Shown: positions 31,673 to 63,866, numbered from the stretch's first letter. The stretch is 64,000 nt of DNA from an uncultured Vampirovibrionales bacterium (GCA_964387265.1 CAYLWC010000003.1:43468-107467); one strand, 5' to 3'. Translations and numbers: made by a program. Notes: a model not told the origin generated them from the sequence alone.

Positions 31673-31709
31673 AGGGTGGGTTCCTTTTTGTAGAGCTTTA
31701 CTTGGCGTT

Positions 31710-35326: not shown

Positions 35327-37360
35327 TTACGGGGTGACTGAAGGGGTGTTTTTCAGAGTGTGCCGATAATGCTCCAGCTTCCTCACCAAATCGGGATGGT
35401 GTTGAAGCACATCCGGCCTCTTGGCCTTCAAGGCGGTTAACAGAACTTCAGGAAGGTTGAGAGCTTCATTTCGGGTTAATTTTTCAAAGTAGTCCTGTTC
35501 AAACGTGTTGGATAGACGGAGTGACCAGTTTTGATCGCCGCCTGTTCCCGGCTTGTTGTATGTTTCCCGAATCCCGAAGAAGTCCGGGAAAAAGATTTGT
35601 ACGTGTTGGGAGGGGCTGGCAAAGAGTTCAGCCAGCTTTGCGACCAGAAAGCGGTGGGAATCTTGAAGCAGAGACTGTATGAAATTACCACGGGCATTTA
35701 CATCCGGCTCCAGATCTTCGGCTAGGTATTGGGCATGGGTTTGAGCCTGGCCGTTTTGCCATAGCCGATCGATCCAGTTTCTCAGGGGCTCATTATCATG
35801 GGTTCCCGCCATAACCCAATGCTTGGCCGGGACATTTTTTCCCCGATACAAATGATCCGGCTTCTGGGGATCCACAAACTGGGTTACGCGAACTCCGCTT
35901 AAATCCAGCTGTTCCAAGACCGCCTTGACCGGGTTGGTCAGGGTACCCAAGTCCTCACAGATAATGGCGTCTTTATCCAGTCCTTGTGCCTGGGCAGCCG
36001 CGATGACAATGTTCAGCAGATCTCCGTAACGCTGAACCTGCTCCGGGGTAAGGTGCTGGACTCGACGCTCATCATCCGGCCCGACGGCATGATTGAGGTT
36101 GCTCGGGTCAATTTTGCTGAAGGGATGAAGGTCTGGGTGTTCAGGGGACGAGAACAATCTGCCCGCGCCGGATTCCGGTCGGGGAGACTGCCCGGCACGA
36201 TAGACCCAAGGGTCGATAAGACCAATAATATGATCAATTCGCACACCGCCTGGATTTTCCAGAAAGATTTTCTCAAAAAGGGTTTTGAGCAATTCGCCAG
36301 CGGGACCGAGGCTGCCATCCGGCTGAAATAGCTTGGCAGGATCTAACACCGGGAAGCCCCACGCTTGCCCGTCTTGAGAAAAATAATCCGGGGGAGCCCC
36401 TAGCTTATAGCCGTCCAGAAACAACGCCTGGTAGGCCCAAACATCCCGATCGGAAAAGGCAACCTGACGATCGGCAATAAGATTCATGCCTGTCTGTCGG
36501 GCAAAAGCTTTCATCTCTTCTTTCTGAGCAAAGGCGATAAACTGGCAGAACTCGTAGAAGGCGATATCATCGGCATGTTGTGTCTTGATTTCCTGAATTC
36601 GGGCTTGAGTGGCCTGTTCTTCCTGGGCATTGCTAGGACTGTACAGGCGTTTATCCAGCTCACTGGGCCAGATGGGCCAGTAGTCGTTTTGGTGGTGAAT
36701 CGAAAGCGCCTCATACAGGCTATCCCGTTCCAGCCAGGCTTGGTTTTTCAGCCGGAACGCCTGGAAGTCGCGCTCCAGTTTATTAAGTGCGTCCACGTCC
36801 GTTTGGGGTAAGCGTTGCAAGTTCTGGCGCTTTTGCTGATAGGTCTGGAAGGATTCTCGTAACGCCCGTTCCTGCGCTCGGTAGATATAGCCGTAAGCGG
36901 TCCGAGGCTTACCGGCGTGGGGTGGCTGTTGGGGGGTATTGCGGACAATGTCATCCAGGGTCTGGGTACTTAAAATCCCAGCCCATTTGGGGTCATTCGC
37001 CAACATGGCCAGATCCACAAACAGAGGGTTGTTGGAAAAGGAGGTGCTAGTATAGGGGGAAGCGTCAATGGCCTTGGTTTTTCCTCCTGGACCTAGCTGA
37101 ACACTGTTAAATCCCATGGTTTTCAGAAAGTTAAACAGGCGTTTGGCCCCCTTTGAATTGGGGGAACCGATGCCGGTGTCTTCCCCCGGCTCTGACGGGA
37201 AGCTGGCCCCATGGATGATCATGGCCAGGTTCTTTTTACCCAGCAGACTTAAGGTGTCCTCAATGGTTTTTTGATACTCGCTCAGCTCGTTGGGTTGTAA
37301 GGCCCGGCCGAATTTTGCTTCGGGGGAGGTGGCTGAAATAGAGCTTGGGGTCGATGACAT
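35327..37360 (-). CDS. malQ: 4-alpha-glucanotransferase (amylomaltase, GH77)
   Basis: IHGASFPS...GIGSP N-terminal signature and GH77 catalytic blocks. Start placed at ATG 37360 with a CAGGAGCC RBS. Confidence 0.85.
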   Translation of the reverse strand: MSSTPSSISATSPEAKFGRALQPNELSEYQKTIEDTLSLLGKKNLAMIIHGASFPSEPGEDTGIGSPNSKGAKRLFNFLKTMGFNSVQLGPGGKTKAIDASPYTSTSFSNNPLFVDLAMLANDPKWAGILSTQTLDDIVRNTPQQPPHAGKPRTAYGYIYRAQERALRESFQTYQQKRQNLQRLPQTDVDALNKLERDFQAFRLKNQAWLERDSLYEALSIHHQNDYWPIWPSELDKRLYSPSNAQEEQATQARIQEIKTQHADDIAFYEFCQFIAFAQKEEMKAFARQTGMNLIADRQVAFSDRDVWAYQALFLDGYKLGAPPDYFSQDGQAWGFPVLDPAKLFQPDGSLGPAGELLKTLFEKIFLENPGGVRIDHIIGLIDPWVYRAGQSPRPESGAGRLFSSPEHPDLHPFSKIDPSNLNHAVGPDDERRVQHLTPEQVQRYGDLLNIVIAAAQAQGLDKDAIICEDLGTLTNPVKAVLEQLDLSGVRVTQFVDPQKPDHLYRGKNVPAKHWVMAGTHDNEPLRNWIDRLWQNGQAQTHAQYLAEDLEPDVNARGNFIQSLLQDSHRFLVAKLAELFASPSQHVQIFFPDFFGIRETYNKPGTGGDQNWSLRLSNTFEQDYFEKLTRNEALNLPEVLLTALKAKRPDVLQHHPDLVRKLEHYRHTLKNTPSVTP

Positions 37361-37428
37361 GGCAGGGCTCCTGAATATGGGGGGCAACGGTGATGTTAGC
37401 ATTGGTTTAATTTTTCTCTGTAATTACC

Positions 37429-41828: not shown

Positions 41829-44800
41829 CTAGGGGTAGCTGGGCAGATAACTTGGCAGGTAGGGGGTGTCAATTTCAAAGAGGTGGAAACGGCCTGGCCC
41901 CAGGTCTACCTTCAATTGGTTTTCACCACGGATAAAGTGACTGGAGCGGCCGTACGGCAAGGATAAATCTTTCAAGGATTGAGTCTGACGGAACCCTGGA
42001 ATATGAAGGGTATTGCTATGACGAGCATTTACATCTTTATTGGCAACCACCAGCAAAGTTTTACCATTGAGATGTCGGGCGAAAGCAATGATCTGGTTGT
42101 TTTCCGCGTTTTGTACCGGGACGGGGATAAACAGACCTTTGCTCAGAACATCCTGGTACTGTTTCCGGGTAGATAACATATGCTTGAGGAAGATTCCAAT
42201 TTCTGGATGGTTTCCTTTCGGGCGCTTGGCGAAGTTAAAAATGTCGAAATGTCCTGAAAAACCTGTTGTAAAACCATCTAAAATATAAGGGTTGGTCAAG
42301 GGCTGCGTTGCCATTAGGCCCGAGGCGAGGAAGGACATAGTGGTGCCTCCATTGGTCATCAGGGCCGGATCATCATGGGTGAGGAAGGAGCCGATAAAGG
42401 ATTTTCCGCTCCCTGCCCGGTTAAACATCTGATAGCCATCTTTCAGGTATTGCATATACTCATTGGCGTTGCGCATCTTATGGAAGATGTGGAATTGGCC
42501 ATAGATGGAATCAAACCCACTTTTCAGCAGTCCTTCCGGGACGTCCCGGGGGATATTTTCCATGGGGGAGGCGTCCTCCTCGGTGTAGCTTTCAGCCAGC
42601 CACCCCAGGTGTGGGTACTTGCTTGTAAAGTGTTGCCAGAACCACAGGGGCCGAGCGCGGGCTACATCGACCCGAAAGCCATCCACTCCGACTTTATTGA
42701 CCATCAAGTCAAAAAAGTCTGCATAGTATTTCACCAGGGCCGGGTTGGTTTCAAACATGGCAATATCAATCCAGTTGGCCGGCGTTTTCAGGTTTCCGTT
42801 TCGATCCCTGGCAATCAGGTCCGGGCGGGCTTGGGCCAGATCAATGGAGGCGCAACTGGGGACATCTGCCATCACATGAATCCCTCGCTTATGCGCTTCC
42901 TGAACAAAAATACGGGCTTCATCCAGAACACTGAGCCTATTCCCTGGTGTATCATATTCTGGGTTGAGTTCCAGGTATGAGGCCGGGGCATAGACACTAC
43001 CCGCTTCCCCGAGACGTTTTTGATCTCCAGGTGGGTGGATGGGAAGAAGGTGAATAGTATTCACGCCCAGGTCTTTCAGTTCATCCAGTTTGGAAATGGC
43101 CGAGAGAAACGACCCGCTTTCCCCATGGTTAAATGAGATACGGCCATCGTTATTCTTGTCTTCGGCGCCAAACGTCCGAAGATGCAAAGCGTAGATAACG
43201 GCCTGGTTATTTTTAAAGAGATTTTTGAGTTGGTTTTGCCACGGATAAGGCGGACGTGGGGGCATGGACTGCATAACCGGCGTAGGCTGTATGACCCGGC
43301 TTGCGGGCTGGGAGGGATAAGATCCGTAATAAGGTCTATAATAAGGGTTTATTCCAATTCCAGGAGTGGTTGTAAACGGTCGTTGCGGAATGGCGCTAGG
43401 CTGACTCCAGCCAAACTTGGGCTGTGATGTTGGCGGAGGAGTGGCGGCGGGTTGATTTGTGGCGGGTTTTGGCGCCCCACGACGGCCCACGAAAAATTGG
43501 GTATACAACATGGTTGCCAGTAGCATGCCACCACCCAGATAGCCAATAATTCTTTTTTGCCAGAGTGTTCTGAGTTTGGTGTCTTTGAGGGCGCTCAGCA
43601 AATGCTGGCTTGGGGAAGCGCCCAGTCGGTTAAAGGCTTTGCCAAACTGGCCCTGGTTAATCAATTGGCGGGCTTCCTGGTATAACTGCTCGTTACCCGC
43701 CAGTTTCTTGGCTTGTTCCACTTGCCCCTTTTCTACCAGGCTTTGGATCTCTGGTAGCCCAGGCTTATCCATTAGCGCCTTGAGTGTTTGAACAGTGGGT
43801 TTACCCTTATCAAGTTCTTGGAGAAGAGCCTCGTAATGGCTGACCGTTGCCCTGGCGTTTGTGATTCGCTCTTCAATCAGTTGTTGTGCATTGGCGTGTA
43901 TTGACTTATCCAGCTGAATCCCCTGTTTTTTGAGAAGTACAGACGCTTCTTCGGATAAATGGCTCAGGAAAACCCGTTGTTTTTTTAGGTATTGTTGCAG
44001 CTCCTGACGCCGAGAAGCCTGCTCAGCTTGCCCCAGGGTTTCAAAGTGGCTCAAAAGCGTTTTCTTTTGTTCATGAGCCGGGGCGTTGACAATATCCTGT
44101 ATACTAAACGCAGTATTAAGGCCGGTTTTATTAACCATGTTGACCCCAAAACCTTTCCACCATTGGGAAATCTTGGAGTTTGGAATCTCTCCCACCAGCT
44201 GCCTGACATGGTGTTGGACGTGGTGGGTGAGTTTTTGAGGATCCCGGGTATGGGAGGCCCGGAAAAAGTGGTACATGGTATTCATCCGGTTTAAAAGGTG
44301 GATTGTCGGTTGTTGTAATTGGTCACAAAGTAGCCCTGAAATCACTGGTGTGGCAGGGCCTGCAACCAACATCCACCAGGTCTTGGACTGGGTGGCAATT
44401 TCCCGAATGCGTTCTTCCGTAATTTCTCGGCGGTTGGGGAGATGGCGAGGTATTTTCAGTTTGTCAGCGATACGAATAATCTCATAATCTGGTATCAGGT
44501 GCAGGGGGAGGTACTTGGGATCCTTGTAGAGATTATGTCGTTCCTTGTTGGTGTTGATATAGTCTTGATTCAGGTTCACGCCGGTACGACCCCGAACCAG
44601 TCCATTAATAATTTTGGGGGTGGCGGCCATGGCGCCAAACCAACTTAGAAAACCCAGATATTCCCCAACGCCAAAGACGCGCCGAGTCAGGCCAAACGTT
44701 GCCAGGGTCGCTATGCCCAGACCGGCTCCTCTCTTCAGATTATCATCCAGGATGGCCAGATTGTTATCGCTGATGGGCTTTGGGCCAATGTCGGTTAGCG

Positions 44801-44909
44801 TGGAGGCCACGCGGAGCTGCGTACTGGCAAAATCCTTGAACGTTTTGGGTGGGGCCAGGTGAGCATAGGGAGGAGACACGTTACTTTGGGAGGAGGTCAG
44901 GAAGGTCAT
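41829..44909 (-). CDS. Membrane-anchored GH13 alpha-amylase fused to an uncharacterised N-terminal (about 470 aa) domain
   Basis: C-terminal GH13 catalytic domain with GVDGFRVDVA (nucleophile), WLAESYTEE (acid/base) and FLTHDDP. TM helix IIGYLGGGMLLATMLY and a Pro-rich linker. The N-domain is homologous to the upstream 351 aa protein. Confidence 0.8.
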   Translation of the reverse strand: MTFLTSSQSNVSPPYAHLAPPKTFKDFASTQLRVASTLTDIGPKPISDNNLAILDDNLKRGAGLGIATLATFGLTRRVFGVGEYLGFLSWFGAMAATPKIINGLVRGRTGVNLNQDYINTNKERHNLYKDPKYLPLHLIPDYEIIRIADKLKIPRHLPNRREITEERIREIATQSKTWWMLVAGPATPVISGLLCDQLQQPTIHLLNRMNTMYHFFRASHTRDPQKLTHHVQHHVRQLVGEIPNSKISQWWKGFGVNMVNKTGLNTAFSIQDIVNAPAHEQKKTLLSHFETLGQAEQASRRQELQQYLKKQRVFLSHLSEEASVLLKKQGIQLDKSIHANAQQLIEERITNARATVSHYEALLQELDKGKPTVQTLKALMDKPGLPEIQSLVEKGQVEQAKKLAGNEQLYQEARQLINQGQFGKAFNRLGASPSQHLLSALKDTKLRTLWQKRIIGYLGGGMLLATMLYTQFFVGRRGAPKPATNQPAATPPPTSQPKFGWSQPSAIPQRPFTTTPGIGINPYYRPYYGSYPSQPASRVIQPTPVMQSMPPRPPYPWQNQLKNLFKNNQAVIYALHLRTFGAEDKNNDGRISFNHGESGSFLSAISKLDELKDLGVNTIHLLPIHPPGDQKRLGEAGSVYAPASYLELNPEYDTPGNRLSVLDEARIFVQEAHKRGIHVMADVPSCASIDLAQARPDLIARDRNGNLKTPANWIDIAMFETNPALVKYYADFFDLMVNKVGVDGFRVDVARARPLWFWQHFTSKYPHLGWLAESYTEEDASPMENIPRDVPEGLLKSGFDSIYGQFHIFHKMRNANEYMQYLKDGYQMFNRAGSGKSFIGSFLTHDDPALMTNGGTTMSFLASGLMATQPLTNPYILDGFTTGFSGHFDIFNFAKRPKGNHPEIGIFLKHMLSTRKQYQDVLSKGLFIPVPVQNAENNQIIAFARHLNGKTLLVVANKDVNARHSNTLHIPGFRQTQSLKDLSLPYGRSSHFIRGENQLKVDLGPGRFHLFEIDTPYLPSYLPSYP

Positions 44910-45964
44910 CAGCTCCGTCCTCCCTGCGCGCTAAGGAACTTTTGAAACACCGAAGGTCGGAATGGATCGATTGTACCGTTTTTTCCGGCCAGGTACATCG
45001 GTGGGGGGGATTGATAATTCTTCTTTTCCAAGACCCTGAACATTTGGGCAAAGCCCAAGGCAGCGCCCACACCCAGAACACCCAAGACGCTTTTCCGAAG
45101 TCGAGGGGCCGCTTCCTTGGCGTGACCACTCAAGCGATCCCGAAGTCCGGTCTCCACTTGACTGTAAAGAACGGTTCCGGCATTTTTGACCCTGTTGGCA
45201 ACGTCCCCGGCTTCGGCGCCAAAGAGGGTCTTCTTGAGGATGTCTTGTCCACCGAGCAGGCGAGCCCAGGCGTCGCTTCGGGCGATATAGCCCGCACTAA
45301 CCGCCGCCAGCAGGTTCCCCAATAAGAGCTTAATAGCCCGAGAGGAACTGACCACGGAATTGAGTTGTTCCTGTACCGCCCCTTTGTGATCGGCCACACC
45401 AGGGGGGAGGCCCATTTTCTCCTGGATTTCCCGGAATTGTTTGTTGTTTAAAAGTTCATATTTGGGGAAATCCGCACTGGCGAATATTTTTTCAATGGAG
45501 CCATCGGGTTTTTTGTAGAGTGCGTTGAGATCGACCCCGTATCGCCATTTATAGACCTTATTGACCATGCTGTTAATCAGATGAATGCTGGTGTAGTACA
45601 AACCCACCCCGATACCTTGCCGCAATGCGGTCACTTTCCCGCCGCTGCCTGCGGCCATAAAACTTAGGGTCAGGACCGTGCCGCCCAGGTAATAGGGAAT
45701 GGTGGTGGTTCGCATGAAATCCGAAAAACTGAACGAGGGATCCCCCTTTAGTCCTTTATAGACACTTTGGGGGAGTTTGATAAAAGTATTTTTCGCGTGA
45801 AATAAGAGTTTTTCAACGGGGGAAAGCTGAATCTGCTTATCTTTGGGGAGCTTGGTAGGGTCAATGTAGGAGGGTGTAAGATCAAGGGAATAGACCGGCA
45901 TGGTCTGCTGGCGGTGGGCCGGAAATGGCGTTGGGATAGTGGCTTTGAATGTTACAGGATCCAC
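44909..45964 (-). CDS. Membrane protein paralogous to the N-terminal domain of the adjacent GH13 fusion
   Basis: GTG start with a GAGGGG RBS. Stop overlaps the downstream ATG (ATGA coupling). Conserved blocks YGVDLNALY/TGVNLNQDY and DFPKYELL/LIPDYEII. Confidence 0.6.
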   Translation of the reverse strand: MDPVTFKATIPTPFPAHRQQTMPVYSLDLTPSYIDPTKLPKDKQIQLSPVEKLLFHAKNTFIKLPQSVYKGLKGDPSFSFSDFMRTTTIPYYLGGTVLTLSFMAAGSGGKVTALRQGIGVGLYYTSIHLINSMVNKVYKWRYGVDLNALYKKPDGSIEKIFASADFPKYELLNNKQFREIQEKMGLPPGVADHKGAVQEQLNSVVSSSRAIKLLLGNLLAAVSAGYIARSDAWARLLGGQDILKKTLFGAEAGDVANRVKNAGTVLYSQVETGLRDRLSGHAKEAAPRLRKSVLGVLGVGAALGFAQMFRVLEKKNYQSPPPMYLAGKNGTIDPFRPSVFQKFLSAQGGRS

Positions 45965-46440
45965 AACTGTGTTATCCCCTCGTGTTGGTCATATTAATGC
46001 CCTACAAGGTTTCAGACTGTATAGCGCTAACAACAGAAGAAAGATGGTCAATTTCTGAATGTGATCAATTGATTCAAAAATAGCGTATTTGTTACAGGGG
46101 TTGTTTTTTAAAGGAATCAAACAATTAGAACAATGAGGTTGTCCTGGGACGACGTTCTGGTGAGTTTGCCTATATAAGCATAAAGGGGGAATTGCATGAA
46201 GAGGTTGCTGTAAAATATATATGTACTTGATATCTCTTCCTGTAGCGTTTTGTAATAAATGGGGTATTTCCCGAATGTCGGCAGTATAATGCCAGGCAAA
46301 CAGGGATTCTGACCTTTTACTCTCAACGGACTGAAGCCACGACTCATAGAGAGCTGGTCAAGACCATGATGTCCTGTCGGTTTTAGATCGCATTCGATCG
46401 CAACTTTTGAAATTGATGATCTTTCATATCAGGAAAGGAA

Positions 46441-49400
46441 ATGGTGAAAGAAATACCCATGTTGGGAGTTCACTGGAACAATCAATTGCGGTCCCCTGTC
46501 CGGTTTTCCGGGTACCGGCTGACGCCGTCCGGGAATGCCCAGTTGTATCTGCCCGGCCATGAAAAGTCCCGAGTCCAGGCGGATGTGATTTTTCCTGACG
46601 GTAAAAAGGATGTGGTCCAGTTTAACCGGGATGGCCAATACTGGCGCGCCAAGCGAGAGCTGCCTCTGGGCAGTCTGTATCAGATCCAGGTGGATGGAAA
46701 ACCCGAACTGGATTTGTTGGAAACCCGCGAGTTTTGTAACAAAGCCTATAATGTAACTTCGCCCCTGGAACGAACGGCTCCGAAGAAAAGCGTGGTGATT
46801 GCCGATCTGTTTCAAAATGGCGCCGTTGCCGATGAGTGTCTGCGGGCTTACCAAAAAACAGGCATCCCGGCTCGCAACCACTTTAATGACTTTGGTGGGG
46901 ATGAACGGGGCCTGAAATCCCTGGTGCCTCTGTTGCAGGAGGCCGGATATTCGGCGCTGCTCTTTAAACCTTTTATTGGTGGGGATAATTTATCTTCCCA
47001 TGGCTATTGGACCGTGGATCCCTTTGCCCTGAATAAAAGTTTTTCCAACAAGAAGGCGTTTAAAAACTCGCTGAACCTGCTGTTAAAGTCTGGGATGAAG
47101 CCATTTGCAGATGGCGCCTTTGTTAATCAGGGATTAAACGGGATTCAATACCTGGCCAATCTTCATTATGGATTCCGCTCTCCCTTTTGGGATTGGTTTA
47201 CTTTTGAGGAAACCAATCAAAAAGGGCAGTCTCAGTATCCACGAAACGCATATGAAGGGATGACCCTGGGAATCCTTCCTACCAAAACCGATCCGATGTC
47301 CCGTATCCGCTTTGTGGATTATGACCGGTTCGATATTCGGGTGCTGAACGATCCGGCGCAACCTGAATATAGCCCTAAAAAACCGACATTTATAGAACTG
47401 TTTAACCCGCAAACTGCTGATCAACTGCTCCCTCAGACAAATCGGGATGGAAAGATTCTGAGCAGTGAGGATTCCGTGCAGACCTACCGTTTCCCAGTCC
47501 CGGTCAAAGAGCTGATGGAAAAACAGGAGCGGCTTGAGCAATTAAAGAAAGCCCCGGATTATACGGATCGGACCCGGAAGCAACTGCTGAGCGAGTGGAA
47601 GCAGTTTCGCCTGGGTCCACCGGCTGAAGATGATTCCAGCCTGAAGTGGGATGGCCAGATTGATGTGGCCAAAATGAACATGCGGAACCCGGAAGTCCAG
47701 AAGTTTGTGGAAGATTCCATGGTGTACTGGACCCGCTTTGTCAAAAACACCTATACTGAAACCGTGGCAAGCGCCTTACAGAAAGCCCGGCTGAAATACC
47801 CGGACAAGTCGCCGCTGGAACTGGTTCAGCAGATTACCGCCACCACACCCCAGGATGCCAGGATGCCGGGGAAGGTGTTACCACCCATTGATTTCCCCCA
47901 ATTGGAAACCCTGACGGAAGCGGATGTTGAAAAAGCCCTTACTTCAGCCGTATTGTCCGATACGAAGCAGCCAGGCCATGCGTTGGCAGAAACCATCTTG
48001 AAGCAATATCCCTTGCCTGTATTGCCGATGCCCCCTTTGTTCAAAGCCGCCTTGACTTATCCAGAGCTGGCCAAGGCGCTAAGCCGACCTGCCGCCCCCT
48101 GGTTGATGCAGGTTATTGATTTTGCCTTTAAACCGCTGAAAATGCTGGCGGAGGTGGCGCCCAAATGGCGACGCCATATCGATTCATGGGTCGATTTTGT
48201 GTTTGAGAAGCTGAAACAATTCTCATTTGAGGGAATGCTTGCCAATAAACTGGAAAGGAGCATTCAGCATCTCTCGAGAGACGCTCAGCAAAAGCTTCGA
48301 TCCCAACCTGTTCGGGAATTGATTACGGAAACCGTTGCCCAGACGCTCTACCTGCAACTGTTAACCGGGCAAACCAGTACAGTCCCTGATAACGTGGAAG
48401 AAGGTTTTTACCGGACGGTGCCGGATTATATCGCGCAAGCGGATCCCCAGACCGCCGCCAATCTTCTTCCCCGTTTTCTGAAGGACCGGCTAAAAGCCTT
48501 AAAGACCAATCAAATCGCCCAATTGATTGAGAGGCAACTCCGGGATCTCGAGCCGGATATGGTTGCGGTGGCGTCCGCGGTGTTGGATAAACGGGAATTT
48601 GGCCTGAACTGGCGGATTGATGCCGCCAAGGACGTGGGAGACATGGACCTGGTACGGAACGCCCCGGCTGACAAACGAAAAGATCTCTTCAGGCAGGAAA
48701 TGAGTTTTGTTGAGGGTTTTTGGAAACAACGGGGTGAGGCCATTCGTAATGTTTCCCCGAAAACTGCGATTATCGCGGAATTAACGGACTTTGAAGCCTT
48801 GTCCGATGACAGCACCGCTCGGAATATCTCCCGTCGGCTGTTTGATGTGTTTAATGGCATTCCCAACATGCGATACATGTATAGTTCTTTGGCCAAGGCG
48901 GTGCACATGGTTCAGAATCCCGCAGAATTTGGCGGCGATTTACAGATGAAGCCTTCGGGTTTCCTGAATGAAGTCAAGGGAATGAGCCAAAGCGTGCCGT
49001 TGCCTGCACTGCGTCAGTACCAGAACATGAGCTCCAGCCATGACTACCCGACGGCCAGCCATACGTTCCTGATGAATCCCGATATTTTTAATATGGATTA
49101 TATCCGCTGGTGGGGTATTCAAGAGTACTTTAATGAAGCGGTCAGCGAGCTGCTGACCAAGCCCGGATTCCAGCGGGAACGGGAGCTACTCAGGCGTGAA
49201 GGGGTTGAGAACTTAAAAGAAATCTTTGCCACATTAAACACGGCGGCGGAGAAAGCCCATCAGCAAAAACAGTTTTCCCCGTCTGTACAGAATTACTTCT
49301 CCAAGGGCAGTAAGCAACGGGAAGAGCCTGTGCCGCTGGATGCCAAACAGAACTTTGTGGATGAGTTGTTTACGCTGGTCACACCGCAACAGTTGGGGGT

Positions 49401-50397
49401 AGACCCCAGGACGTTTAACGCGTTACGGACGGTCCTCTCCGATAGAATATTGGAGCCCAGCGAGGCGCGCGCCATGCGAGGTGTGATTCAAAACGGCATG
49501 CTGCGCTTTGATTGGACCGGGTATGCCAGGGCCATCAATACACAAGTCCCTCCAAAGCAGCTTCAAGAGGGTTTCTTTTCCCTGTTTTCAGAAGCCATCC
49601 AACGATGCGTGCAAGAGTATGGCAGTCACTTTGGGTATCAGCCCCTTTATGAGGCGCTACATCATGTGCTGGAGAATCTGGATGATACGGCCCTGAAGCA
49701 GCTGATACCGGGGGAAGCTCCTACCAGCCTGGTAAAACAGACCCTGCATGAGCAGTTGTTTGATCAGCTGCAAAAGCCCGTGTTGGAGGATAAGTTCTTG
49801 AGAAAAGTGGCCTTACAGGTGGGTGTGCCCGGTAATCCTTCGATTTATGAAATCGTACCACAGGGTGGTAGTGAGAGCCGCAAAAATAAATACGTACAGA
49901 ACCGTCCCCTGATACGGTACGACTGGCTGAAGGAAAGGCCGCTGTATCAGGATTATCATCAAAAGCTTTCCAGGCTGCTTCACTTACGAAAGCAAGTGCC
50001 GGTGCTCAATGATGGGATTGTGTTGCCGCTTCAAACGCAAGATGTGGATGGGATCGTGCCGCTGGTTCGGGATAATGGGCGGGAACAAGCCATTATGCTG
50101 GTGAACACAGGAAAACCCTCGTTGCCGGAAGATTACCCCCACTGGCGGAATCTGACCGGGAATGATGCTCAGTATCCCGAAATCCAAACGACCCAAAAGG
50201 TCAAAAAGAACTTCAAGTTGAACCTCTCTGCGATACAGCCGCAACCGGAAAAAACAGTGTACCGGGATGTGGAAACCGGGGAACGGTTTAAAGTGGATAA
50301 AAACTACCAGCTGGTCTCTCTGGATAACCCCGGACGGGGCATGGACATCGAGGTCTACCGCTGTCTGGTTCGAGAAGACGTGGCGGGAAATAGCTAG
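46441..50397 (+). CDS. Giant (1318 aa) highly divergent GH13-like alpha-amylase-family protein with large insertions
   Basis: AGGAAAGGAAATGG RBS. N-terminal GGDERGLKSL...FKPF...HGYWTVDPFALN and FADGAFVNQG resemble GH13 regions. SSSHDYP resembles region IV. C-terminal LRKQVPVLNDG...LVNTG resembles the amylase C-domain. Confidence 0.65.
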   Translation: MVKEIPMLGVHWNNQLRSPVRFSGYRLTPSGNAQLYLPGHEKSRVQADVIFPDGKKDVVQFNRDGQYWRAKRELPLGSLYQIQVDGKPELDLLETREFCNKAYNVTSPLERTAPKKSVVIADLFQNGAVADECLRAYQKTGIPARNHFNDFGGDERGLKSLVPLLQEAGYSALLFKPFIGGDNLSSHGYWTVDPFALNKSFSNKKAFKNSLNLLLKSGMKPFADGAFVNQGLNGIQYLANLHYGFRSPFWDWFTFEETNQKGQSQYPRNAYEGMTLGILPTKTDPMSRIRFVDYDRFDIRVLNDPAQPEYSPKKPTFIELFNPQTADQLLPQTNRDGKILSSEDSVQTYRFPVPVKELMEKQERLEQLKKAPDYTDRTRKQLLSEWKQFRLGPPAEDDSSLKWDGQIDVAKMNMRNPEVQKFVEDSMVYWTRFVKNTYTETVASALQKARLKYPDKSPLELVQQITATTPQDARMPGKVLPPIDFPQLETLTEADVEKALTSAVLSDTKQPGHALAETILKQYPLPVLPMPPLFKAALTYPELAKALSRPAAPWLMQVIDFAFKPLKMLAEVAPKWRRHIDSWVDFVFEKLKQFSFEGMLANKLERSIQHLSRDAQQKLRSQPVRELITETVAQTLYLQLLTGQTSTVPDNVEEGFYRTVPDYIAQADPQTAANLLPRFLKDRLKALKTNQIAQLIERQLRDLEPDMVAVASAVLDKREFGLNWRIDAAKDVGDMDLVRNAPADKRKDLFRQEMSFVEGFWKQRGEAIRNVSPKTAIIAELTDFEALSDDSTARNISRRLFDVFNGIPNMRYMYSSLAKAVHMVQNPAEFGGDLQMKPSGFLNEVKGMSQSVPLPALRQYQNMSSSHDYPTASHTFLMNPDIFNMDYIRWWGIQEYFNEAVSELLTKPGFQRERELLRREGVENLKEIFATLNTAAEKAHQQKQFSPSVQNYFSKGSKQREEPVPLDAKQNFVDELFTLVTPQQLGVDPRTFNALRTVLSDRILEPSEARAMRGVIQNGMLRFDWTGYARAINTQVPPKQLQEGFFSLFSEAIQRCVQEYGSHFGYQPLYEALHHVLENLDDTALKQLIPGEAPTSLVKQTLHEQLFDQLQKPVLEDKFLRKVALQVGVPGNPSIYEIVPQGGSESRKNKYVQNRPLIRYDWLKERPLYQDYHQKLSRLLHLRKQVPVLNDGIVLPLQTQDVDGIVPLVRDNGREQAIMLVNTGKPSLPEDYPHWRNLTGNDAQYPEIQTTQKVKKNFKLNLSAIQPQPEKTVYRDVETGERFKVDKNYQLVSLDNPGRGMDIEVYRCLVREDVAGNS

Positions 50398-50466: not shown

Positions 50467-51807
50467 ATGGCACAAGGCACCATGGTGGATTCCATCACCT
50501 CAACGACCGCCGAATCGACGTACGGCTCGCAGAAGGCAACGACCGCTGTTCGTCGGATGTCGATGCTCCAGCTCTTGAATTTAAGTATCGGCTTTTTGGG
50601 CATTCAGTTTGCCTGGGCCATCCAGATGGGACAGATGAGCCCGTTATTAGAGCGCTTGGGCTCTGACCCCCAGTGGATTGGGATTATCTCCTGCGCGGGC
50701 CCTGTGACCGGGGTGCTGGTTCAGCCGATTATCGGGTCCTTGAGTGATCAATCCAAAATTGCCTTTGGCCGCCGTCGCCCCTTCTTGCTGGCCGGAATGA
50801 TCTGTACGATTTTAAGCTTGATCCTGATGCCCAACTCCACCGAACTCTGGATGGCCGCGGTGCTACTCTGGATTCTGGATGCCAGCATCAACGTTTCTCA
50901 AGGCCCCTACCGGGCGATGATTTCCGATGTGGTGCCGAAAGCCCAGCAAGCGACGGCCTTTTCTCTCACCAGCCTGACTATTGGGCTGGGGTCAGTCATT
51001 GCTTTCCTCATTGGCTTTGCCATTAACTCTATGCACAACCTGTTTTATTTGGGGGCCAGCGCCATGCTGGTGGCCATGATGTGGACGATTTTAACCACCA
51101 AGGAAGAAAACCCCAAGCTGCTGGCGCTCAGCGGGGAGCAGGCCACGGAATCTACCGGGAATTTCTTTATCAACATGTTTAAAGGCATTTTCTCGATGCC
51201 GAAAGAAGGCTTAAAGCTCTGCCTGGCCCATAGCTTTACCTGGTTCGGCCTGATGTGCCTGTTTGTCTTTTTCTCGGTCTACGTGCCTCATCATGTCTTT
51301 GGCGCCGCCGATTCCAGTAGCGAGCTGTATCAGAAGGCCGTTCAGTGGGGGTCTATCTGTTATGCCGTCTTGAACGCCGTATGCTTTCTCTTCTCTTTCG
51401 CCATCAGCAAGCTCTGCGCCCTGACTTCCAAAAAAGCGGTCCATACGTTCGGTTTGCTGTGTATGGCTGGCAGCATGCTGGGGATGTTTTATATTTCTAC
51501 CCCAGAGATGGCAATGGTCCTGATGGGCCTGATGGGGATTGGCTGGGCGACATCGCTCTCGATTCCCTTTGCCCTGCTCTCGGAGCATATCCCCAACGGC
51601 AAAGAAGGGGTGTTGCAAGGGACCTTTAATATCTTTGTGGCCGCCCCTGGGGTGATTAGCAGTCTGGTTGTAGGGAACATCGTTCAGGCCTATGACGGCA
51701 ACTATGCGGTGGCCATGGTGATTGGCGGAGGCTCCATGCTGGTGGCGGCGCTGCTCCTGCAATTTGTCAAGGAAGCCCGTCAGGAAAAAGCCCCACTTAT
51801 CGCCTAG
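50467..51807 (+). CDS. MFS transporter of the GPH/sucrose-transporter (SLC45/SUT-like) family
   Basis: LLNLSIGFLGIQFAWAIQ...GPVTGVLVQPIIGSLSDQ...FGRRRPFLLAG closely parallels plant SUT and SLC45 N-terminal motifs. 12 TM. Confidence 0.8.
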   Translation: MAQGTMVDSITSTTAESTYGSQKATTAVRRMSMLQLLNLSIGFLGIQFAWAIQMGQMSPLLERLGSDPQWIGIISCAGPVTGVLVQPIIGSLSDQSKIAFGRRRPFLLAGMICTILSLILMPNSTELWMAAVLLWILDASINVSQGPYRAMISDVVPKAQQATAFSLTSLTIGLGSVIAFLIGFAINSMHNLFYLGASAMLVAMMWTILTTKEENPKLLALSGEQATESTGNFFINMFKGIFSMPKEGLKLCLAHSFTWFGLMCLFVFFSVYVPHHVFGAADSSSELYQKAVQWGSICYAVLNAVCFLFSFAISKLCALTSKKAVHTFGLLCMAGSMLGMFYISTPEMAMVLMGLMGIGWATSLSIPFALLSEHIPNGKEGVLQGTFNIFVAAPGVISSLVVGNIVQAYDGNYAVAMVIGGGSMLVAALLLQFVKEARQEKAPLIA

Positions 51808-52179: not shown

Positions 52180-54333
52180 TTAAACCGCTTGAATCACCTG
52201 GATGATCTGAACGCGCCAGCTTTCGCCGGGGGCCAGATCCAGCTTCCAGTTGGGATACAAGGCGGTGGATTGAAAGACCTTTTCAAACCCGGCTTCCGAT
52301 TGGGAAACCGTCTCAATTGGGAAGCGCCACAGATCTGTCGGGGTGCTGAATCGCAGTTGGTAATCAATTCCCATCCACTCGTCTTTCAAGCCAATGGCGG
52401 AAACCTGCTTCAGGGTCCCTTTTGAGGCCATTTTCTTGCTTCTGAGTACGGGCGGGGCTTCTTCTAAAACCGCTGTCCCACCGGCAGGAACGGTATTGGT
52501 ATCCGGCTCCGGCAGATAAAAATAGCGATCTGGCGCATCGGGGGCCAGCATATTCACGTTAAATTCCGGGGCGAACCACAGAGACACCACTTCCGTGGAA
52601 TCATTGGTGAGGGTGTAATCAATGGTGGTGGTAGCGCTATCCACCTCCACGGTGAGCCGCTTTTGGACGGTGACCGGGTGGGCTTTTCCATTTATCACCA
52701 CATCTCCGGTCCGGGTGAGGGTGACCTGATTGCCCTCATGCTGGGTCTCATAGGGCTGGTTGATAAATTGCCCCTGTTCTTCGTATTCCACATTAAACAA
52801 AGCATCCAGCGTGGTGTCTGGCCCCAGGAAGTGATCCAGCAAGCTGCCCCGGCGGTGCCAATCGTACCGCAGAAGCTTTTCCAGCCCTTTTTCTTTGACC
52901 ACCACCCGCTCATGGATATTTTTGACCGATCCGTCATCGTCATCCTCATGCAGTGCCAGGTGCAATTTGTCATGGTAAGACTCATACCGCCGGGCCAGGG
53001 TATCCAGTAGGTTAAAGTGCCGGGGACGGAAGTCTAATTCAAAGAGCATGCCCCCTTCAGCGGGATCTAGGTATAAATTTTGGGTGTCTGATTCCACCAG
53101 GACTTCGGCCTGGCCGTCACAGTCGAGATCCCGTTCTTTCATTGTAAAGAATGAATCTCCCCGCAAGACGGTGTCGGCTAAATTTTCCGCCTGGATCAAA
53201 TGCTGGTAGTTGGCGGTTCTTAAATTGGTTAAATACAAGCCGCCGAAGACGCCATGCCAGAAAATATCGTTAGATTGCCCCTGCCAGAGGTGATCCAGCG
53301 CCTCGGTCTTTTTCGGGCCTTCCGGCATCTTGCGGACTTTTTCGCTGACATACAGCATTTTCTTTTGCACGTTATTCGATTCCGGGTATTTCACCAGAAA
53401 ATGCCGCCAGAACCCCCCCCGGACAAAGCGTTGATTGGCTTCCGGGGTGTCTTTGAGAAATTGCTCAAAGGGGTTAATATGTTTCGCTGGCAAGGCCCAT
53501 TCCAGCATCTCGCTATAACTGGCCGTCGGCAAGTAAATCCGGCCAAAAGAGGGGACGTTTTGCACGTATTGCGATGGGGTGATGGTCTTGATCACCTCGT
53601 CGTTTTGTTCCAGGGCCGTAAAGAATTTATCCAGCCATTTTTCCGTATAAACGGCTTTATAAGTCCCCGGCCAGACGCCAAACTTCTCTCCGTCATCAAA
53701 ATAAATCCCGGCCCGTTCTCCGCTCTCTGTGGCCTGCTGAATGAGGTAATCCACCACCTCTTGCGGTTTGGCATAGGGGATCATGTAACGCAATTGCTTG
53801 CTAACCGGGAAGATGTCCACCATTTGGCCCATTTCTTCGGAGGTATAGCGGCCCAGCAGCTCTTCATCGTCCAGCCCCACTGAGTTAAAATGGGCGTCAT
53901 CCACGCAGAGGTATTTCACCCCGGCTTCTGCCAGGAATTTTACCAAATGGGGCTCCCAGACTCTTTCGGCTAGCCACATACCTTTTGGCGTTTGCCCGGT
54001 GAGTTCTTTCACCCGGTTCGTCAGCTTTTGAATCTGCCCCACTTTGTCTTTATCGGGAATAATGGGCAAAATCGGCTCATAAAACCCGCCAGTAAACATC
54101 TCGACTTGGCCCCGATCCACCAGGCGCTTGAGCTGCTCAATGAGTTCCGGGTGCTTCTCGGCAATCCAGTCCAGCAGGTAGCCGGTGTAATGCACGCTCA
54201 TCCCAATCCTGGGGTGGGCTTCCAGCACGTCTAAAAAGGGCTTATAGCACTTTTGATACGCATCCTCAATCACATGATCCCAGTTATCCACAGGCTGATG
54301 ATTATGAACACCCAGAAGCAGGTTGATGGTCAT
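52180..54333 (-). CDS. Glycoside hydrolase family 57 (alpha-amylase/4-alpha-glucanotransferase/branching-type)
   Basis: N-terminal GVHNHQP plus HYTGYLLDW...EMFTGGFYEPIL...WLAERVWEP, diagnostic for GH57. Confidence 0.85.
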   Translation of the reverse strand: MTINLLLGVHNHQPVDNWDHVIEDAYQKCYKPFLDVLEAHPRIGMSVHYTGYLLDWIAEKHPELIEQLKRLVDRGQVEMFTGGFYEPILPIIPDKDKVGQIQKLTNRVKELTGQTPKGMWLAERVWEPHLVKFLAEAGVKYLCVDDAHFNSVGLDDEELLGRYTSEEMGQMVDIFPVSKQLRYMIPYAKPQEVVDYLIQQATESGERAGIYFDDGEKFGVWPGTYKAVYTEKWLDKFFTALEQNDEVIKTITPSQYVQNVPSFGRIYLPTASYSEMLEWALPAKHINPFEQFLKDTPEANQRFVRGGFWRHFLVKYPESNNVQKKMLYVSEKVRKMPEGPKKTEALDHLWQGQSNDIFWHGVFGGLYLTNLRTANYQHLIQAENLADTVLRGDSFFTMKERDLDCDGQAEVLVESDTQNLYLDPAEGGMLFELDFRPRHFNLLDTLARRYESYHDKLHLALHEDDDDGSVKNIHERVVVKEKGLEKLLRYDWHRRGSLLDHFLGPDTTLDALFNVEYEEQGQFINQPYETQHEGNQVTLTRTGDVVINGKAHPVTVQKRLTVEVDSATTTIDYTLTNDSTEVVSLWFAPEFNVNMLAPDAPDRYFYLPEPDTNTVPAGGTAVLEEAPPVLRSKKMASKGTLKQVSAIGLKDEWMGIDYQLRFSTPTDLWRFPIETVSQSEAGFEKVFQSTALYPNWKLDLAPGESWRVQIIQVIQAV

Positions 54334-54400: not shown

Positions 54401-55492
54401 TCAGATTTCCAGCAAGCTTAAAATGATTTCCAGGAGGATCAGGATGACAATCACAAACTCTAAGGTCTGGCTCTGAGCGGAACGCAAGCGATCCGTGACC
54501 AGGTTATACAGGTTATCAATAATATCCAGCTTGCGGGAGATGGCCTGTTCCCACTCATGCATATAAAAACGCTCGGAAGCCGCTTTATGAACCCGCGCCA
54601 AATACAGATCCCCAATGAGCTTCAGCGCGTTTTCCACCCGCTCTGTCACCAGGGACGACTCAATCCGAAGTTCTGCCAGCTCGTTCATGGTTTTGCGGTA
54701 TGGGGAGTACAAGGGAATAAACCAGGGAGCCTGCTTATACAGGATGTCTTCATACTCATCAACCCGATTATCCAGTTGGCTGTCAATATATCGGTACTCT
54801 AAAAGCTCGACGTTTAGCAGTTCTAACACGCTTAACGTATCGGCGTAATTGGTATCGTAGACAATGGCGGTGTTCCAATCGATGATCACTAGATCATTCT
54901 CATAGTATGAGAGGGTTTTGGCTAGGGCTTCCTTTTGCTGATCCAGGTTCAGTGGGCTGGTATCAAAGCGCAGTACCTGGGCCATGGTGGCCCCGTAGCG
55001 CTCCCGGAGGTCCATGGCATTAATAGGGCCCTCTATGGGAGTATCCAGTTGCTCCAGGACAAAAATATAATAATCTTCAATGAGGTTGGCGATATGGGGG
55101 CGGCTGATGGCCTTCTGGATGTTCTGGAAGAGGTTTTCCACTTGTTGCTTGGCATGATCTTCCAAATCGGCCTGATAAAGTCGCTCGCTGAACTGGGGGA
55201 GTGCTTCCAACGGCACCTGATCTAGGGGCCACCGATAAGAAATACTGACGGCGCCAAAATCATAGACGGTGGCGTAGATTTGTCCCTTGACCCCAAAGGG
55301 CGTCTCGATTTCCCCTAGAAATAACACTTGCGGGGCGGTCTGGTATTGTAGGTAGGTAGGGGTTTGCTTTTTCCGGGAGATCGGTTGGACTGGTAGGGAG
55401 GAAATATATAGAGGGACCTGATCCAGGGCAATTTCGTAGCCAATATCAAAGGCGAAATAGGCAATCGCTTGTCCTTTAACAATTTGAGGCAT
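54401..55492 (-). CDS. Hypothetical protein with C-terminal TM anchor (possibly RMD1/DUF155-like)
   Basis: ATG at 55492 with an AAGGAGGG RBS. About 340 aa soluble domain plus a terminal hydrophobic helix LEFVIVILILLEIILSLL. Confidence 0.45.
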   Translation of the reverse strand: MPQIVKGQAIAYFAFDIGYEIALDQVPLYISSLPVQPISRKKQTPTYLQYQTAPQVLFLGEIETPFGVKGQIYATVYDFGAVSISYRWPLDQVPLEALPQFSERLYQADLEDHAKQQVENLFQNIQKAISRPHIANLIEDYYIFVLEQLDTPIEGPINAMDLRERYGATMAQVLRFDTSPLNLDQQKEALAKTLSYYENDLVIIDWNTAIVYDTNYADTLSVLELLNVELLEYRYIDSQLDNRVDEYEDILYKQAPWFIPLYSPYRKTMNELAELRIESSLVTERVENALKLIGDLYLARVHKAASERFYMHEWEQAISRKLDIIDNLYNLVTDRLRSAQSQTLEFVIVILILLEIILSLLEI

Positions 55493-55567
55493 CAACCCTC
55501 CTTGACGTGGCGGTATATATTTTATCATACCAAGGATCCAGATAAATAACGGCTGAGCCGGTTAAAA

Positions 55568-62086: not shown

Positions 62087-63778
62087 TTACCGATCGGCCT
62101 GGCTGATGTTATAGGCGGCGTTCAGCATGCCCAGTACAAAGAGCAGGCTGGCGTTGTTCACAATATTGGGCTCATTGACGCTGGGGGCTTTATAGGTATC
62201 TACGTAGCTTCTGGGACCCGCGCCTTGGGGAACGTCAGGCTCTGTTGAAAACTGGTTGGGGCCTGATACCAGATAGCCTGGTAGGATTTTCCCGCTGACG
62301 ACCATCATTTGATGATGTGGACTGGTGACCGGATTCGAGCCAACGCCCGTGACATAGGTTTTAGCGAGAGGGTTTAATCCAAACAGGTAATATACGGTTT
62401 TCGTAGCCGCATCCCGATATTTCGCTTCATTGGTTAGCTGAAACGCCGATAGCAACAGGGCTGCCTGCTCGGTTAACTGGCCGTTGGAGTTCCAGGTGTA
62501 TTGGGTAAAGCCAGCTCCGTAGGGGTCTTTTTGAATCCGTGTGGTTAAGCGATCCGCAAATTGAGTGATTTTCTGCCGGATAGAACGCCGGGCATCTTCG
62601 TCTGGATTGGGTGCATACAAGGTGTAATCCAGTAAGGCCAGTATACCGGGATTGCCGTAGGGGGATAAGGCCAGCGGGGTGTTTTTATAATGCGTTAAAA
62701 AGAACTGATGATATTTGTCTTTACCGGTTGCGATATAGAGCTCGGAAGCGGCCCAGAGGCGATACGGCAGATCGCTTTCCGTAATCGGACGTTTGGCCAG
62801 GAAATTCCAGCTGTCTTCGGCGGTCCGAAGGGCTTTGATCATGTACCCCATGTCTTTTACCCGGAAACTCCGGCTGGTCATGGCCAGAGTGGCGGCGGTG
62901 GCTGCGGTATCTTGAGTTGTCACTTCTCCCAGATACCGGGGACGGGTATCTTTATTGGGCATGATTCTATCGACGGCCCCTTGGCTGTAGACTTTTTGGT
63001 ACACGCCACCATCTTCCCGCTGCATGGCTCTCAGCCAATTCAGGCCCGCTTTCACTTCATGCAGGTAATCAGGGACCAGTCCTACCCACTGCTCTTGATA
63101 TGGATAATCGAGCTTGAAGTACTGGAATGCCTTGGGGACCCATTCATACAAAGACTGCATTCGGGCGGTGGCAAAGCTGGTGGCAATGACATGCTTATCA
63201 TACCCCCCGTCAGTGTACCATCCTCCAGCAGCATCCCGGTATTGTTCCGTTCCTGGCAGCAGGGCGTCATCCACATGGCTGGCCGGATGATAAAAATTGG
63301 AGATATAGTCTTCCACTTCCTGACCGCTCCGCTGAAAGTAGAAGGTCTTCATCACCGGTTTGACCAGGTCCCAGTATAGATACTGGGTTATTTTGATGGG
63401 TTCGGATTTAACCTCTGTGCCTTCCACCCGCAACTCGTATTGGCCAGGCTCTTTAAACTCGGAAAAGTCAACGATCAGGTTTCGATTTCCGGGGCCAGCT
63501 TGGTGTTGCGGACGAAAAGACTCAAACGTCTTGATTTTGTATAGGTCTTTCCCTTTAAAGAGCCCCAGGCGGTCGCTCCAGTTGGGGTCATGGAGGGCCA
63601 CTTTGATTGAGGTTCCCTCTGGAACATCTTCCAGAATGGCGATTTTGGGTGCATCAGGATGATACCCGATTTGAGACACCACAAACCGCATGGCTTCAGC
63701 CGGGGACACTCCCAAACACAGGCTTAAACAGCCCAGCAGGAGAAGCAAAAGGGGATTCTTGGAAAAACGCTGCCTCAT
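62087..63778 (-). CDS. Glycoside hydrolase family 9 endoglucanase with N-terminal Ig-like (CelD_N) domain, secreted
   Basis: Signal peptide MRQRFSKNPLLLLLLGCLSLCLGVSPAEA. DAAGGWYTDGGYDKH and later GH9 blocks. A TTG at 63820 is an alternative start. Confidence 0.85.
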   Translation of the reverse strand: MRQRFSKNPLLLLLLGCLSLCLGVSPAEAMRFVVSQIGYHPDAPKIAILEDVPEGTSIKVALHDPNWSDRLGLFKGKDLYKIKTFESFRPQHQAGPGNRNLIVDFSEFKEPGQYELRVEGTEVKSEPIKITQYLYWDLVKPVMKTFYFQRSGQEVEDYISNFYHPASHVDDALLPGTEQYRDAAGGWYTDGGYDKHVIATSFATARMQSLYEWVPKAFQYFKLDYPYQEQWVGLVPDYLHEVKAGLNWLRAMQREDGGVYQKVYSQGAVDRIMPNKDTRPRYLGEVTTQDTAATAATLAMTSRSFRVKDMGYMIKALRTAEDSWNFLAKRPITESDLPYRLWAASELYIATGKDKYHQFFLTHYKNTPLALSPYGNPGILALLDYTLYAPNPDEDARRSIRQKITQFADRLTTRIQKDPYGAGFTQYTWNSNGQLTEQAALLLSAFQLTNEAKYRDAATKTVYYLFGLNPLAKTYVTGVGSNPVTSPHHQMMVVSGKILPGYLVSGPNQFSTEPDVPQGAGPRSYVDTYKAPSVNEPNIVNNASLLFVLGMLNAAYNISQADR

Positions 63779-63866
63779 GGGTTTTATGATAGCCAAGGCC
63801 AGCAGTAGAGTAAAGCGCAAGCGTAAAACATAAACTTTTTGTTACCCCCACGTCCGGCTTGAATGG

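Follow-up and report, generated by a model that had tools for sequence, protein, structure and literature searches.

A stretch of 64,000 nucleotides from an uncultured Vampirovibrionales bacterium (GCA_964387265.1 CAYLWC010000003.1:43468-107467; hereafter the window, to whose full length all nucleotide positions refer) carries at 46441..50397, on the plus strand, an open reading frame (ORF) that we call gene Z. Judged by its sequence, the encoded protein of 1318 amino acids is a genuine member of glycoside hydrolase family GH13, in which all catalytic residues are intact and which owes about twice the usual size to three large inserts. No glycoside hydrolase family is larger or more heavily mined than GH13, in which the recognition of new subfamilies has time and again yielded new specificities. 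Z belongs to an uncharacterized, lineage-specific family that probably represents a new GH13 subfamily. Literature searches found this family described nowhere, and the V. chlorellavorus genome paper offers totals of carbohydrate-active enzymes (CAZymes) alone. Unless another protein is named, amino acid (aa) numbers refer to Z; its two partner genes are called X and Y.

Catalytic residues and fold of Z

Standard libraries see only a small part of Z. The Pfam Alpha-amylase model (PF00128) matched only aa 146-271, at 26 bits (cutoff 22), and a single-sequence search against the Protein Data Bank (PDB) matched only aa 124-270, to TVAII and neopullulanase-type enzymes. NCBIfam assigned no family to Z, the best match, to cyclomaltodextrinase, scoring 36 bits where the cutoff is 540. 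As these searches cover so little of the protein, the view taken in an earlier sequence-only reading, of a GH13-like N-terminus followed by unrecognizable sequence, was fair to what such tools show. The ORF of 1318 aa was found as that reading had given it, and so were the N-terminal motifs GGDERG (aa 152-157), HGYWTVDPF (187-195), and FADGAFVNQG (222-231), where the Pfam and PDB matches fall. Toward the carboxyl terminus, alignment to ThMA placed SSSHDYP (864-870) as region IV, and LRKQVPVLNDG (1182-1192) to LVNTG (1220-1224) in the α8/C-domain region.

Conservation was assessed in a close alignment of 60 Z homologs (20-45% identity) and in a wide alignment of 113 full-length members (18-47% identity to Z). 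D224, R725, D727, A728, E780, T782, and D868 were invariant in the 60 homologs, in which H867, K730, D731, Y189, and N229 reached at least 90%. In the wide family, D224, D727, E780, and D868 were each kept in 110/113 members, R725 in 111/113, and Y189 in 112/113. Alignment and model point to D727 (codon 48619-48621) as the nucleophile on β4, E780 (48778-48780) as the acid/base on β5, and D868 (49042-49044) as the transition-state stabilizer on β7; in the model this triad is held by strands 723-726, 777-779, and 861-863, where ThMA regions III and IV align. The −1 subsite residues Y189, D224 (47110-47112), R725, H867, and R1155 are retained as well. The conserved sequence regions (CSRs) of Z are DGAFVNQ (CSR-I), GLNWRIDAAKD (CSR-II, aa 720-731), IIAELTD (CSR-III, aa 777-783), SSSHD (CSR-IV), VAKMN (CSR-V), and PGNPSIY (CSR-VII). 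With its (β/α)8 barrel, catalytic triad, CSRs I-VII, domain B, and domain C, Z shows the sequence and fold features by which membership of GH13 (clan GH-H) is recognized.

Between the two GH13-like ends, the sequence-only reading had seen about 600 largely helical residues and no region II motif at the expected spacing. However, regions II and III both lie inside this interval and are invariant in the 60 homologs. Rather than one helical block, the interval comprises a mixed α/β insertion, then a normal α3 with CSR-V, and then a helical insertion. The catalytic region, which had been called atypical, is so only mildly: Asn stands in for the His of CSR-I (N229, in DGAFVNQ) and Asp for the terminal His of CSR-II (D731, in AAKD). 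The canonical CSR-I His is missing throughout the wide alignment, where Asn, Ser, Gly, or Asp is found instead. Members of the Gastranaerophilales type carry a canonical CSR-IV (xFVGNHDKPR) and DGAFTSQ or DGAFVNE as CSR-I; those of the Vampirovibrionales type have an SSSHDY-like CSR-IV.

An AlphaFold2 (AF2) model of aa 119-1318, built on the 60-sequence alignment, gave one compact structure with a mean predicted local distance difference test (pLDDT) score of 91.1, a predicted template modeling (pTM) score of 0.91, and 950 residues at a pLDDT of at least 90. The model barrel is complete, with strands at 120-123, 172-175, 220-225, 723-726, 777-779, 861-863, and 1132-1135, and a β-sandwich comes after it at the C-terminus. 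The barrel is preceded by an N-terminal domain (aa 1-118, 46441..46794, plus strand, as are all parts of Z) with the conserved motif RFSGY, in which F22, G24, P38, and Y80 are at least 90% conserved among the 113 sequences. In the family-profile search, this domain gave a weak alignment with the corresponding domains of 5OT1 (213-449) and TVAI (74-248), and Pfam scans at E ≤ 5 of the separated N-domain and C-domain returned noise only. Strands β1-β3 (aa 119-231, 46795..47133), with CSR-VI and CSR-I, are supported by PF00128, the PDB matches, and the model. Beyond the first insertion, CSR-V (VAKMN, approximately aa 408-412) and helix α3 (aa 417-452, 36 residues) occupy 47656..47796, as placed by the ThMA alignment; W403 is invariant and W430 at least 90% conserved among the 113 sequences. 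Strands β4-β7 (aa 719-871, 48595..49053) carry CSR-II, CSR-III, and CSR-IV, and regions III and IV of ThMA align here. The last part (49723..50394) consists of α7, β8 with CSR-VII, α8, and the β-sandwich of domain C (aa 1183-1318), and contains G1131, G1143, E1145, N1149, and R1155.

By profile similarity, the nearest relatives of Z are neopullulanase-, maltogenic-amylase-, and cyclomaltodextrinase-type enzymes (GH13_20/21/36), at approximately 18-20% identity. Searched against PDB sequences, the family profile matched ThMA (1SMA) with an E value of 3e-22, along with other neopullulanase, cyclomaltodextrinase, and maltogenic-amylase enzymes; the best matches were to the GH13_20 group (1SMA, neopullulanase 1J0H, TVAII 1BVZ, Nostoc NPDE 2WC7, and 5OT1; E 3e-22 to 1e-14). 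Z is colinear with these enzymes over β1-β3, α3, β5, β7, β8, and domain C, and shares with them an N-terminal domain before the barrel, an acidic residue closing CSR-II, and a cytoplasmic location. GH13_20 enzymes typically form N-domain-swapped dimers, with a CBM34-type domain over the active site. In CSR-V the likeness goes only part of the way: Z has VAKMN (family pattern x-[AIV]-K-[LM]-[NR]), and the GH13_20 signature is MPKLN (PMC9781549), so that the central Lys and the Asn are common to both, but not the Met-Pro. In contrast, Z carries approximately 650 extra residues in its three inserts, and differs in CSR-I (DGAFVNQ vs DAVFNH), CSR-II (AAKD vs VANE), and CSR-III (AELTD vs GEIWH). With 18-20% identity to GH13_20 structures, a CSR-II that ends in AAKD, and an NCBIfam score of 36 against 540, Z falls outside GH13_20 at the level of a subfamily. 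The enzymes of GH13_36 (Anoxybacillus/Geobacillus α-amylases, 5A2B; CSR-V MPDLN, PMC9781549) and GH13_21 (TVAI/MalZ-type, 1IZJ, 9IVZ) are 450-640 aa long, lack the inserts of Z, and are 18-19% identical to it. Against its own proposal, the sequence-only reading had set a normal member of a known subfamily; of this, the cleanly placed catalytic residues were found, but the spacing is abnormal and, with 18-20% identity to the best structures and no NCBIfam assignment, the known subfamilies do not fit.

The three insertions

The family profile matches ThMA in five colinear pieces: β1-β3 with CSR-I and the start of domain B; CSR-V with α3; α4/β5 with the catalytic Glu; β7 with SHD; and β8 with domain C. 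As the gaps between these pieces define the insertions, there are three of them, not one. Insertion i (aa 232-405, 47134..47655) lies within domain B, which it enlarges to about 150-170 aa where ThMA has about 20 (alignment gap at ThMA 276-296); in the model it is mixed β/α, with approximately 7 strands. In the following piece, the profile segment aKLNTknPEVqdYLkgavaYWtr, over CSR-V and α3, aligned to ThMA. Insertion ii (aa 453-718, 47797..48594) is all-helical, with approximately 14 helices (model helices 458-717), and fills the α3-to-β4 loop with about 270-280 aa, where ThMA has approximately 5. Its junction is clean (YWTRF...REFGLNWRID vs YWIREFDIDGWRLD). Insertion iii (aa 872-1094, 49054..49722), likewise all-helical, follows β7/region IV and precedes α7 on the catalytic face, with about 225-240 aa against the approximately 9 of ThMA (429-438). 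The sequence-only reading had proposed an extreme domain-B or loop expansion; it was right as to an expansion, but not as to a single one, since the sites are domain B, the α3-to-β4 loop, and the β7-to-α7 loop. The helical insertion after region IV had been absent from it.

All three inserts were present in 60/60 homologs and in 113/113 wider members. The length of insertion i ranged from 146 to 224 aa across the 113 members, and that of insertion iii was 211-348 aa in close relatives and approximately 80-140 aa in Gastranaerophilales-type members. Ratios of nonsynonymous to synonymous substitution rates (dN/dS; Nei-Gojobori, Vampirovibrio orthologs, 81-86% protein identity) were 0.07-0.14 for insertion i, 0.13-0.24 for insertion ii, and 0.12-0.16 for insertion iii, compared with 0.04-0.30 for the barrel segments and 0.13-0.33 for domain C. 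As these ratios resemble those of the recognized domains, the inserts are held by purifying selection just as strongly.

No Pfam match was found for any of the three inserts searched separately, even at E ≤ 5, nor any PDB-sequence match, leaving approximately 650 residues of Z without either. Of these, 487 (aa 232-718, inserts i and ii) folded as a separate model with a pLDDT of 91.3, and a PDB fold search with this separate model returned no match; insert i mostly exceeded a pLDDT of 90 in the main model as well. The possibility that insertions ii and iii are duplicates of each other was rejected (hhalign probability 17%).

Two of the insertion sites are known from other GH13 enzymes. SusG (9FZ0) has CBM58 inside domain B, and amylosucrase (3UCQ) a B' domain in the β7-to-α7 loop, which we take to be topologically the site of insertion iii; these inserts measure 60-120 aa and have a known fold. 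Z thus resembles SusG and amylosucrase in bearing modules in the same two catalytic-face loops, but its inserts i and iii are larger, at approximately 150-240 aa, and have no Pfam match, the fold search having covered i and ii. The third site is unusual. In a TIM barrel, the α3-to-β4 loop sits on the face opposite the catalytic one, a face normally left alone, and we know of no GH13 precedent for an insert of approximately 280 aa in an α-to-β loop there.

Distribution, paralogs, and partner genes

To delimit the family, aa 232-1130 of Z were searched with phmmer against 1.84 billion representative proteins. Only 210 matches were obtained at E ≤ 1e-3, 54 of them at E ≤ 1e-30; nearly all were 1250-1600 aa long, with the short ones being fragment-like, and none of the 210 contained the inserted modules in any other architecture. 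Species-representative genomes from GTDB were also scanned with motifs specific to the family, and 255 loci proved to encode a relative. The best 79 of these were from Vampirovibrionales, Vampirovibrio, or Melainabacteria (27-44% identity), followed by Gastranaerophilales (22-26% identity). Named members are proteins from metagenome-assembled genomes (MAGs) of Vampirovibrionales or Gastranaerophilales, annotated as hypothetical or, once, as an α-amylase family glycosyl hydrolase. On these searches, the Z family is nearly confined to the two orders and forms a signature of the class Vampirovibrionia, the nonphotosynthetic cyanobacteria. Its members thereby mark approximately 255 species-level genomes, including those of predatory Vampirovibrio and of human- and animal-gut Gastranaerophilales. 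The carbohydrate metabolism of this class is known from genome annotation only, and most proteins of the Z family are labeled hypothetical.

Eight loci (L026, L037, L040, L044, L051, L059, L066, and L067) lie on gut MAG contigs labeled as Gammaproteobacteria, Alistipes, Clostridium, Methanobacteriaceae, Muribaculaceae, Anaerovoracaceae, or Eubacteriales. Because their Z copies cluster with those of Gastranaerophilales or Vampirovibrionales, these contigs are probably mis-binned or mislabeled, rather than evidence of horizontal transfer.

In three family members (P0065, P0074, and P0075), D224, D727, E780, and D868 were all lost together, while the full architecture was kept (1330-1416 aa, 33-35% identity to Z); a fourth, P0135, has D727N alone. 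P0065 is encoded at locus L085 (10001-13993) in MAG GCA_039794365, on contig JBDIVN010000010, where it adjoins genes for alanine racemase and an ABC permease, not X, Y, or the major facilitator superfamily (MFS) permease that follows Z. The same MAG contains a live Z copy, together with X, Y, and the MFS gene, on contig JBDIVN010000017 (L012). The three proteins thus probably form a clade of catalytically dead paralogs, and since dead P0065 stands beside a live copy in one MAG, this would be a derived and not an ancestral state.

Upstream of Z, across a divergent intergenic region of 476 bp (45965..46440) that was present as the sequence-only reading had described it, lie partner genes X and Y on the minus strand. 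Neither an Rfam family at E ≤ 1 (riboswitch or RNA element) nor promoter-like sites beyond shuffle expectation were found in the intergenic region; directly upstream of the Z ATG is AGGAAAGGA, which is Shine-Dalgarno-like. X (44909..45964) encodes an orphan protein of 351 aa with two weakly hydrophobic Gly/Ala-rich segments and without a Pfam (E ≤ 5), NCBIfam, or PDB match. Its family has 21 members, all hypothetical, of which those with a named source come from Vampirovibrionales or cyanobacterial MAGs. X and Y share 1 nt, where the stop of X runs into the start of Y, and may therefore be translationally coupled. Y (41829..44909) encodes 1026 aa, comprising an unannotated N-terminal region of approximately 550 aa, for which a Pfam scan at E ≤ 5 gave noise only, a Pro-rich linker, and a C-terminal GH13 domain. 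Weak likeness was detected between X and the N-terminal region of Y (BLASTP E 2e-4). Residues 595-957 of Y match 4GKL (Thermotoga neapolitana AmyB; E 1e-22), with VDGFRVDVA, WLAESY, and FLTHDDP aligned and the catalytic residues present. 4GKL represents subfamily GH13_48 (PMC11239784); Y differs, however, in having Val where GH13_48 has its signature Cys before the nucleophile. A membrane anchor in Y was considered and downgraded (maximum hydropathy 1.28). Two separate genes, encoding 614 and 563 aa, take the place of Y in Vampirovibrio (L001).

The MFS permease gene (50467..51807, plus strand), which had also been described correctly, begins 69 bp downstream of Z and is of the GPH/sucrose-symporter-like type (MFS_1 6e-32, MFS_2 8e-16); its match to TIGR01301 (GPH_sucrose, sucrose/H+ symporter) scored 115 bits, below the cutoff of 511. 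The gene, which comes after Z in the majority of Vampirovibrionales loci, is probably co-transcribed with Z. No terminator-like site was found in the 69-bp gap, and terminator counts did not exceed shuffle expectation.

Linkage was examined by tblastn of the window proteins against all fetched Z loci. In 17 loci of the Vampirovibrionales type, X-Y and Z are divergently oriented, mostly with the MFS gene downstream; in 8 loci of the Gastranaerophilales type (L027, L042, L044, L050, L054, L058, L062, and L064), X, Y, and Z are on one strand. That the linkage has outlasted rearrangement argues for a functional unit, and Z most likely acts as one with X and Y, in Vampirovibrionales also with the downstream MFS permease.

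Proposed function and alternative explanations

The overall reading that we favor, and hold to be reasonably probable, is that Z is a live GH13 enzyme enlarged by three inserts, which works with X, Y, and the MFS permease on α-glucans. From what is generally known of GH13, Z would act by retaining double displacement, with a covalent β-glucosyl-enzyme intermediate on D727 and E780 as acid/base. It has neither a signal peptide nor a transmembrane segment (maximum 19-residue Kyte-Doolittle hydropathy 1.07), and would cleave or transfer α-glucosidic bonds in the cytoplasm. The genomic context, with further α-glucan genes close by (GH77 and GH57 in the window, and a GT5-like glucan synthase gene by the cluster in 9 loci), suggests that its substrate, processed together with Y, may be either a sugar of the malto-oligosaccharide kind taken up from outside or an α-glucan made by the cell itself. 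In other GH13 enzymes, enlarged B and B' domains make the active site narrower or close it in; insertions i and iii probably have this effect in Z, in which case chain ends or small substrates would be favored. Insertion ii, the least conserved segment, lies in an opposite-face loop and is probably a docking or oligomerization scaffold that serves partner binding or self-association.

Several points weigh against this picture. Both histidines that have been replaced, by N229 in CSR-I and D731 in CSR-II, are substrate-contacting ones, so that the activity of Z could be unusual or weak. The sequence does not reveal the substrate, the linkage specificity, or the choice between hydrolysis and transfer, and the roles given to the insertions, enclosure for i and iii and docking for ii, were drawn solely from loop topology and analogy with other GH13 enzymes. 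As for the partners, a stretch of 8 kb around Z showed no X or Y in many loci of Gastranaerophilales and in 7 of the Vampirovibrionales type, so Z can exist without them close by, and the hydropathy of X (two segments of 1.63-1.66) and of Y is borderline as to membrane binding.

The sequence-only reading had offered a pseudo-enzyme as one explanation of Z. A noncatalytic Z would agree with the two lost histidines, with the short span that Pfam sees, and with the paralogs that lost four acidic residues while their architecture stayed intact, from which it follows that the scaffold has some worth without catalysis. For Z itself, however, this explanation is very improbable and is rejected. Across the 60 homologs, D727, E780, D868, R725, H867, Y189, and D224 vary little or not at all, and the catalytic and −1 subsite residues are retained in Z and in 110/113 relatives despite identities of only 20-47%. 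The β4-β7 segment has the lowest dN/dS in Z (0.04-0.10), and P0065, the only dead copy for which the genome was looked at, coexists with a live copy. A still less probable explanation is that Z belongs to a known oversized GH13 class, such as TreY (GH13_26), GDE (GH13_25 with GH133), or a TreS-maltokinase or amylosucrase fusion. Z is near GDE in size, shares with TreY and eukaryote-type GDE large barrel inserts and a barrel that Pfam sees only partly, and gave weak N-terminal NCBIfam matches to TreY and TreS models (E 0.01-0.05). Yet these scored 12-14 bits against cutoffs of 678-1556, TreY among them falling far short. Z is expanded at other sites and lacks a GH133 domain, aa 232-718 match neither an (α/α)6 nor a kinase fold, and CSR-V is neopullulanase-type (x-A-K-[ML]-N) rather than QPDLN (PMC9781549), which together place Z outside TreY and GDE. 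An artifact, whether from chimeric assembly, from fusion by frameshift, or from insertion of a mobile or intein-like element, has nothing but the unusual length in its favor, and can be taken as already refuted by the comparative data. The same architecture with its three inserts recurs in 210 representative clusters and in 255 genomes that were assembled independently, and homologs of 1219-1591 aa in 60 protein clusters show that the size noted in the sequence-only reading is real. Moreover, composition is uniform with that of the surrounding window, the inserts are under purifying selection, and AF2 folds the protein into one compact structure.

Of the alternatives, the one with most to recommend it concerns not whether Z is active but what it does: Z may be a transferase rather than a hydrolase, which we consider possible, if on balance unlikely. 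The neighborhood is rich in transferases, with genes for a GH77 4-α-glucanotransferase (35327..37402, minus strand) and a GH57 α-amylase/4-α-glucanotransferase-type protein with AmyA middle and C-terminal domains (52180..54333, minus strand) in the window, and a GT5/GT1-like gene by the cluster in 9 loci. Moreover, CSR-II ends in an acidic residue, D731, at a position held by Glu in neopullulanase-type enzymes. In ThMA this closing Glu has been implicated in transglycosylation, and GH13 enzymes prone to transfer, amylosucrase among them, typically have large B and B' regions. However, no sequence feature separates transfer from hydrolysis, the downstream MFS permease suits uptake and degradation equally, and the GT gene is not in the 64-kb window.

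Within the favored reading of Z as a live, enlarged GH13 enzyme, we can only tentatively suggest, as a rather doubtful extension, that the inserts, X, and the X-like N-terminus of Y build a lineage-specific multi-protein α-glucan machine. This machine would possibly be envelope-associated and would have a reaction specificity or product new to GH13 (a transfer, cyclization, or debranching mode), with the dead paralogs as noncatalytic subunits or regulators, and would be a defining metabolic trait of nonphotosynthetic cyanobacteria, including the human-gut Gastranaerophilales. Even if Z were an ordinary maltodextrin hydrolase, it would still represent a new GH13 subfamily with a set of new protein folds. 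Its catalytic principle is conventional, and its interest is that of a CAZyme discovery target and a route into Vampirovibrionia metabolism: Z, a second GH13 enzyme, an orphan partner, a sugar permease, and dead paralogs make up a concrete system for α-glucan handling in these bacteria.

A few further features were recorded around the Z loci and in the window. The GT5/GT1-like gene, which is absent from the window, encodes a glucan-synthase-like protein of approximately 980 aa with a faint GT5 match and Glycos_transf_1, and lies near X-Y-Z in L001 (1464-4430), L005, L006, L007, L012, L015, L016, L024, and L025. Within the window, ORFs without a Pfam match encode 863 aa (7598-10189, plus strand), 401-402 aa (30758-31966, minus strand), and 375 aa (54401-55528, minus strand), the last lacking an NCBIfam match as well. 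A further glycan-active gene near the cluster, at 62087..63820 on the minus strand, encodes a protein of the GH9 cellulase family that includes a CelD_N domain.

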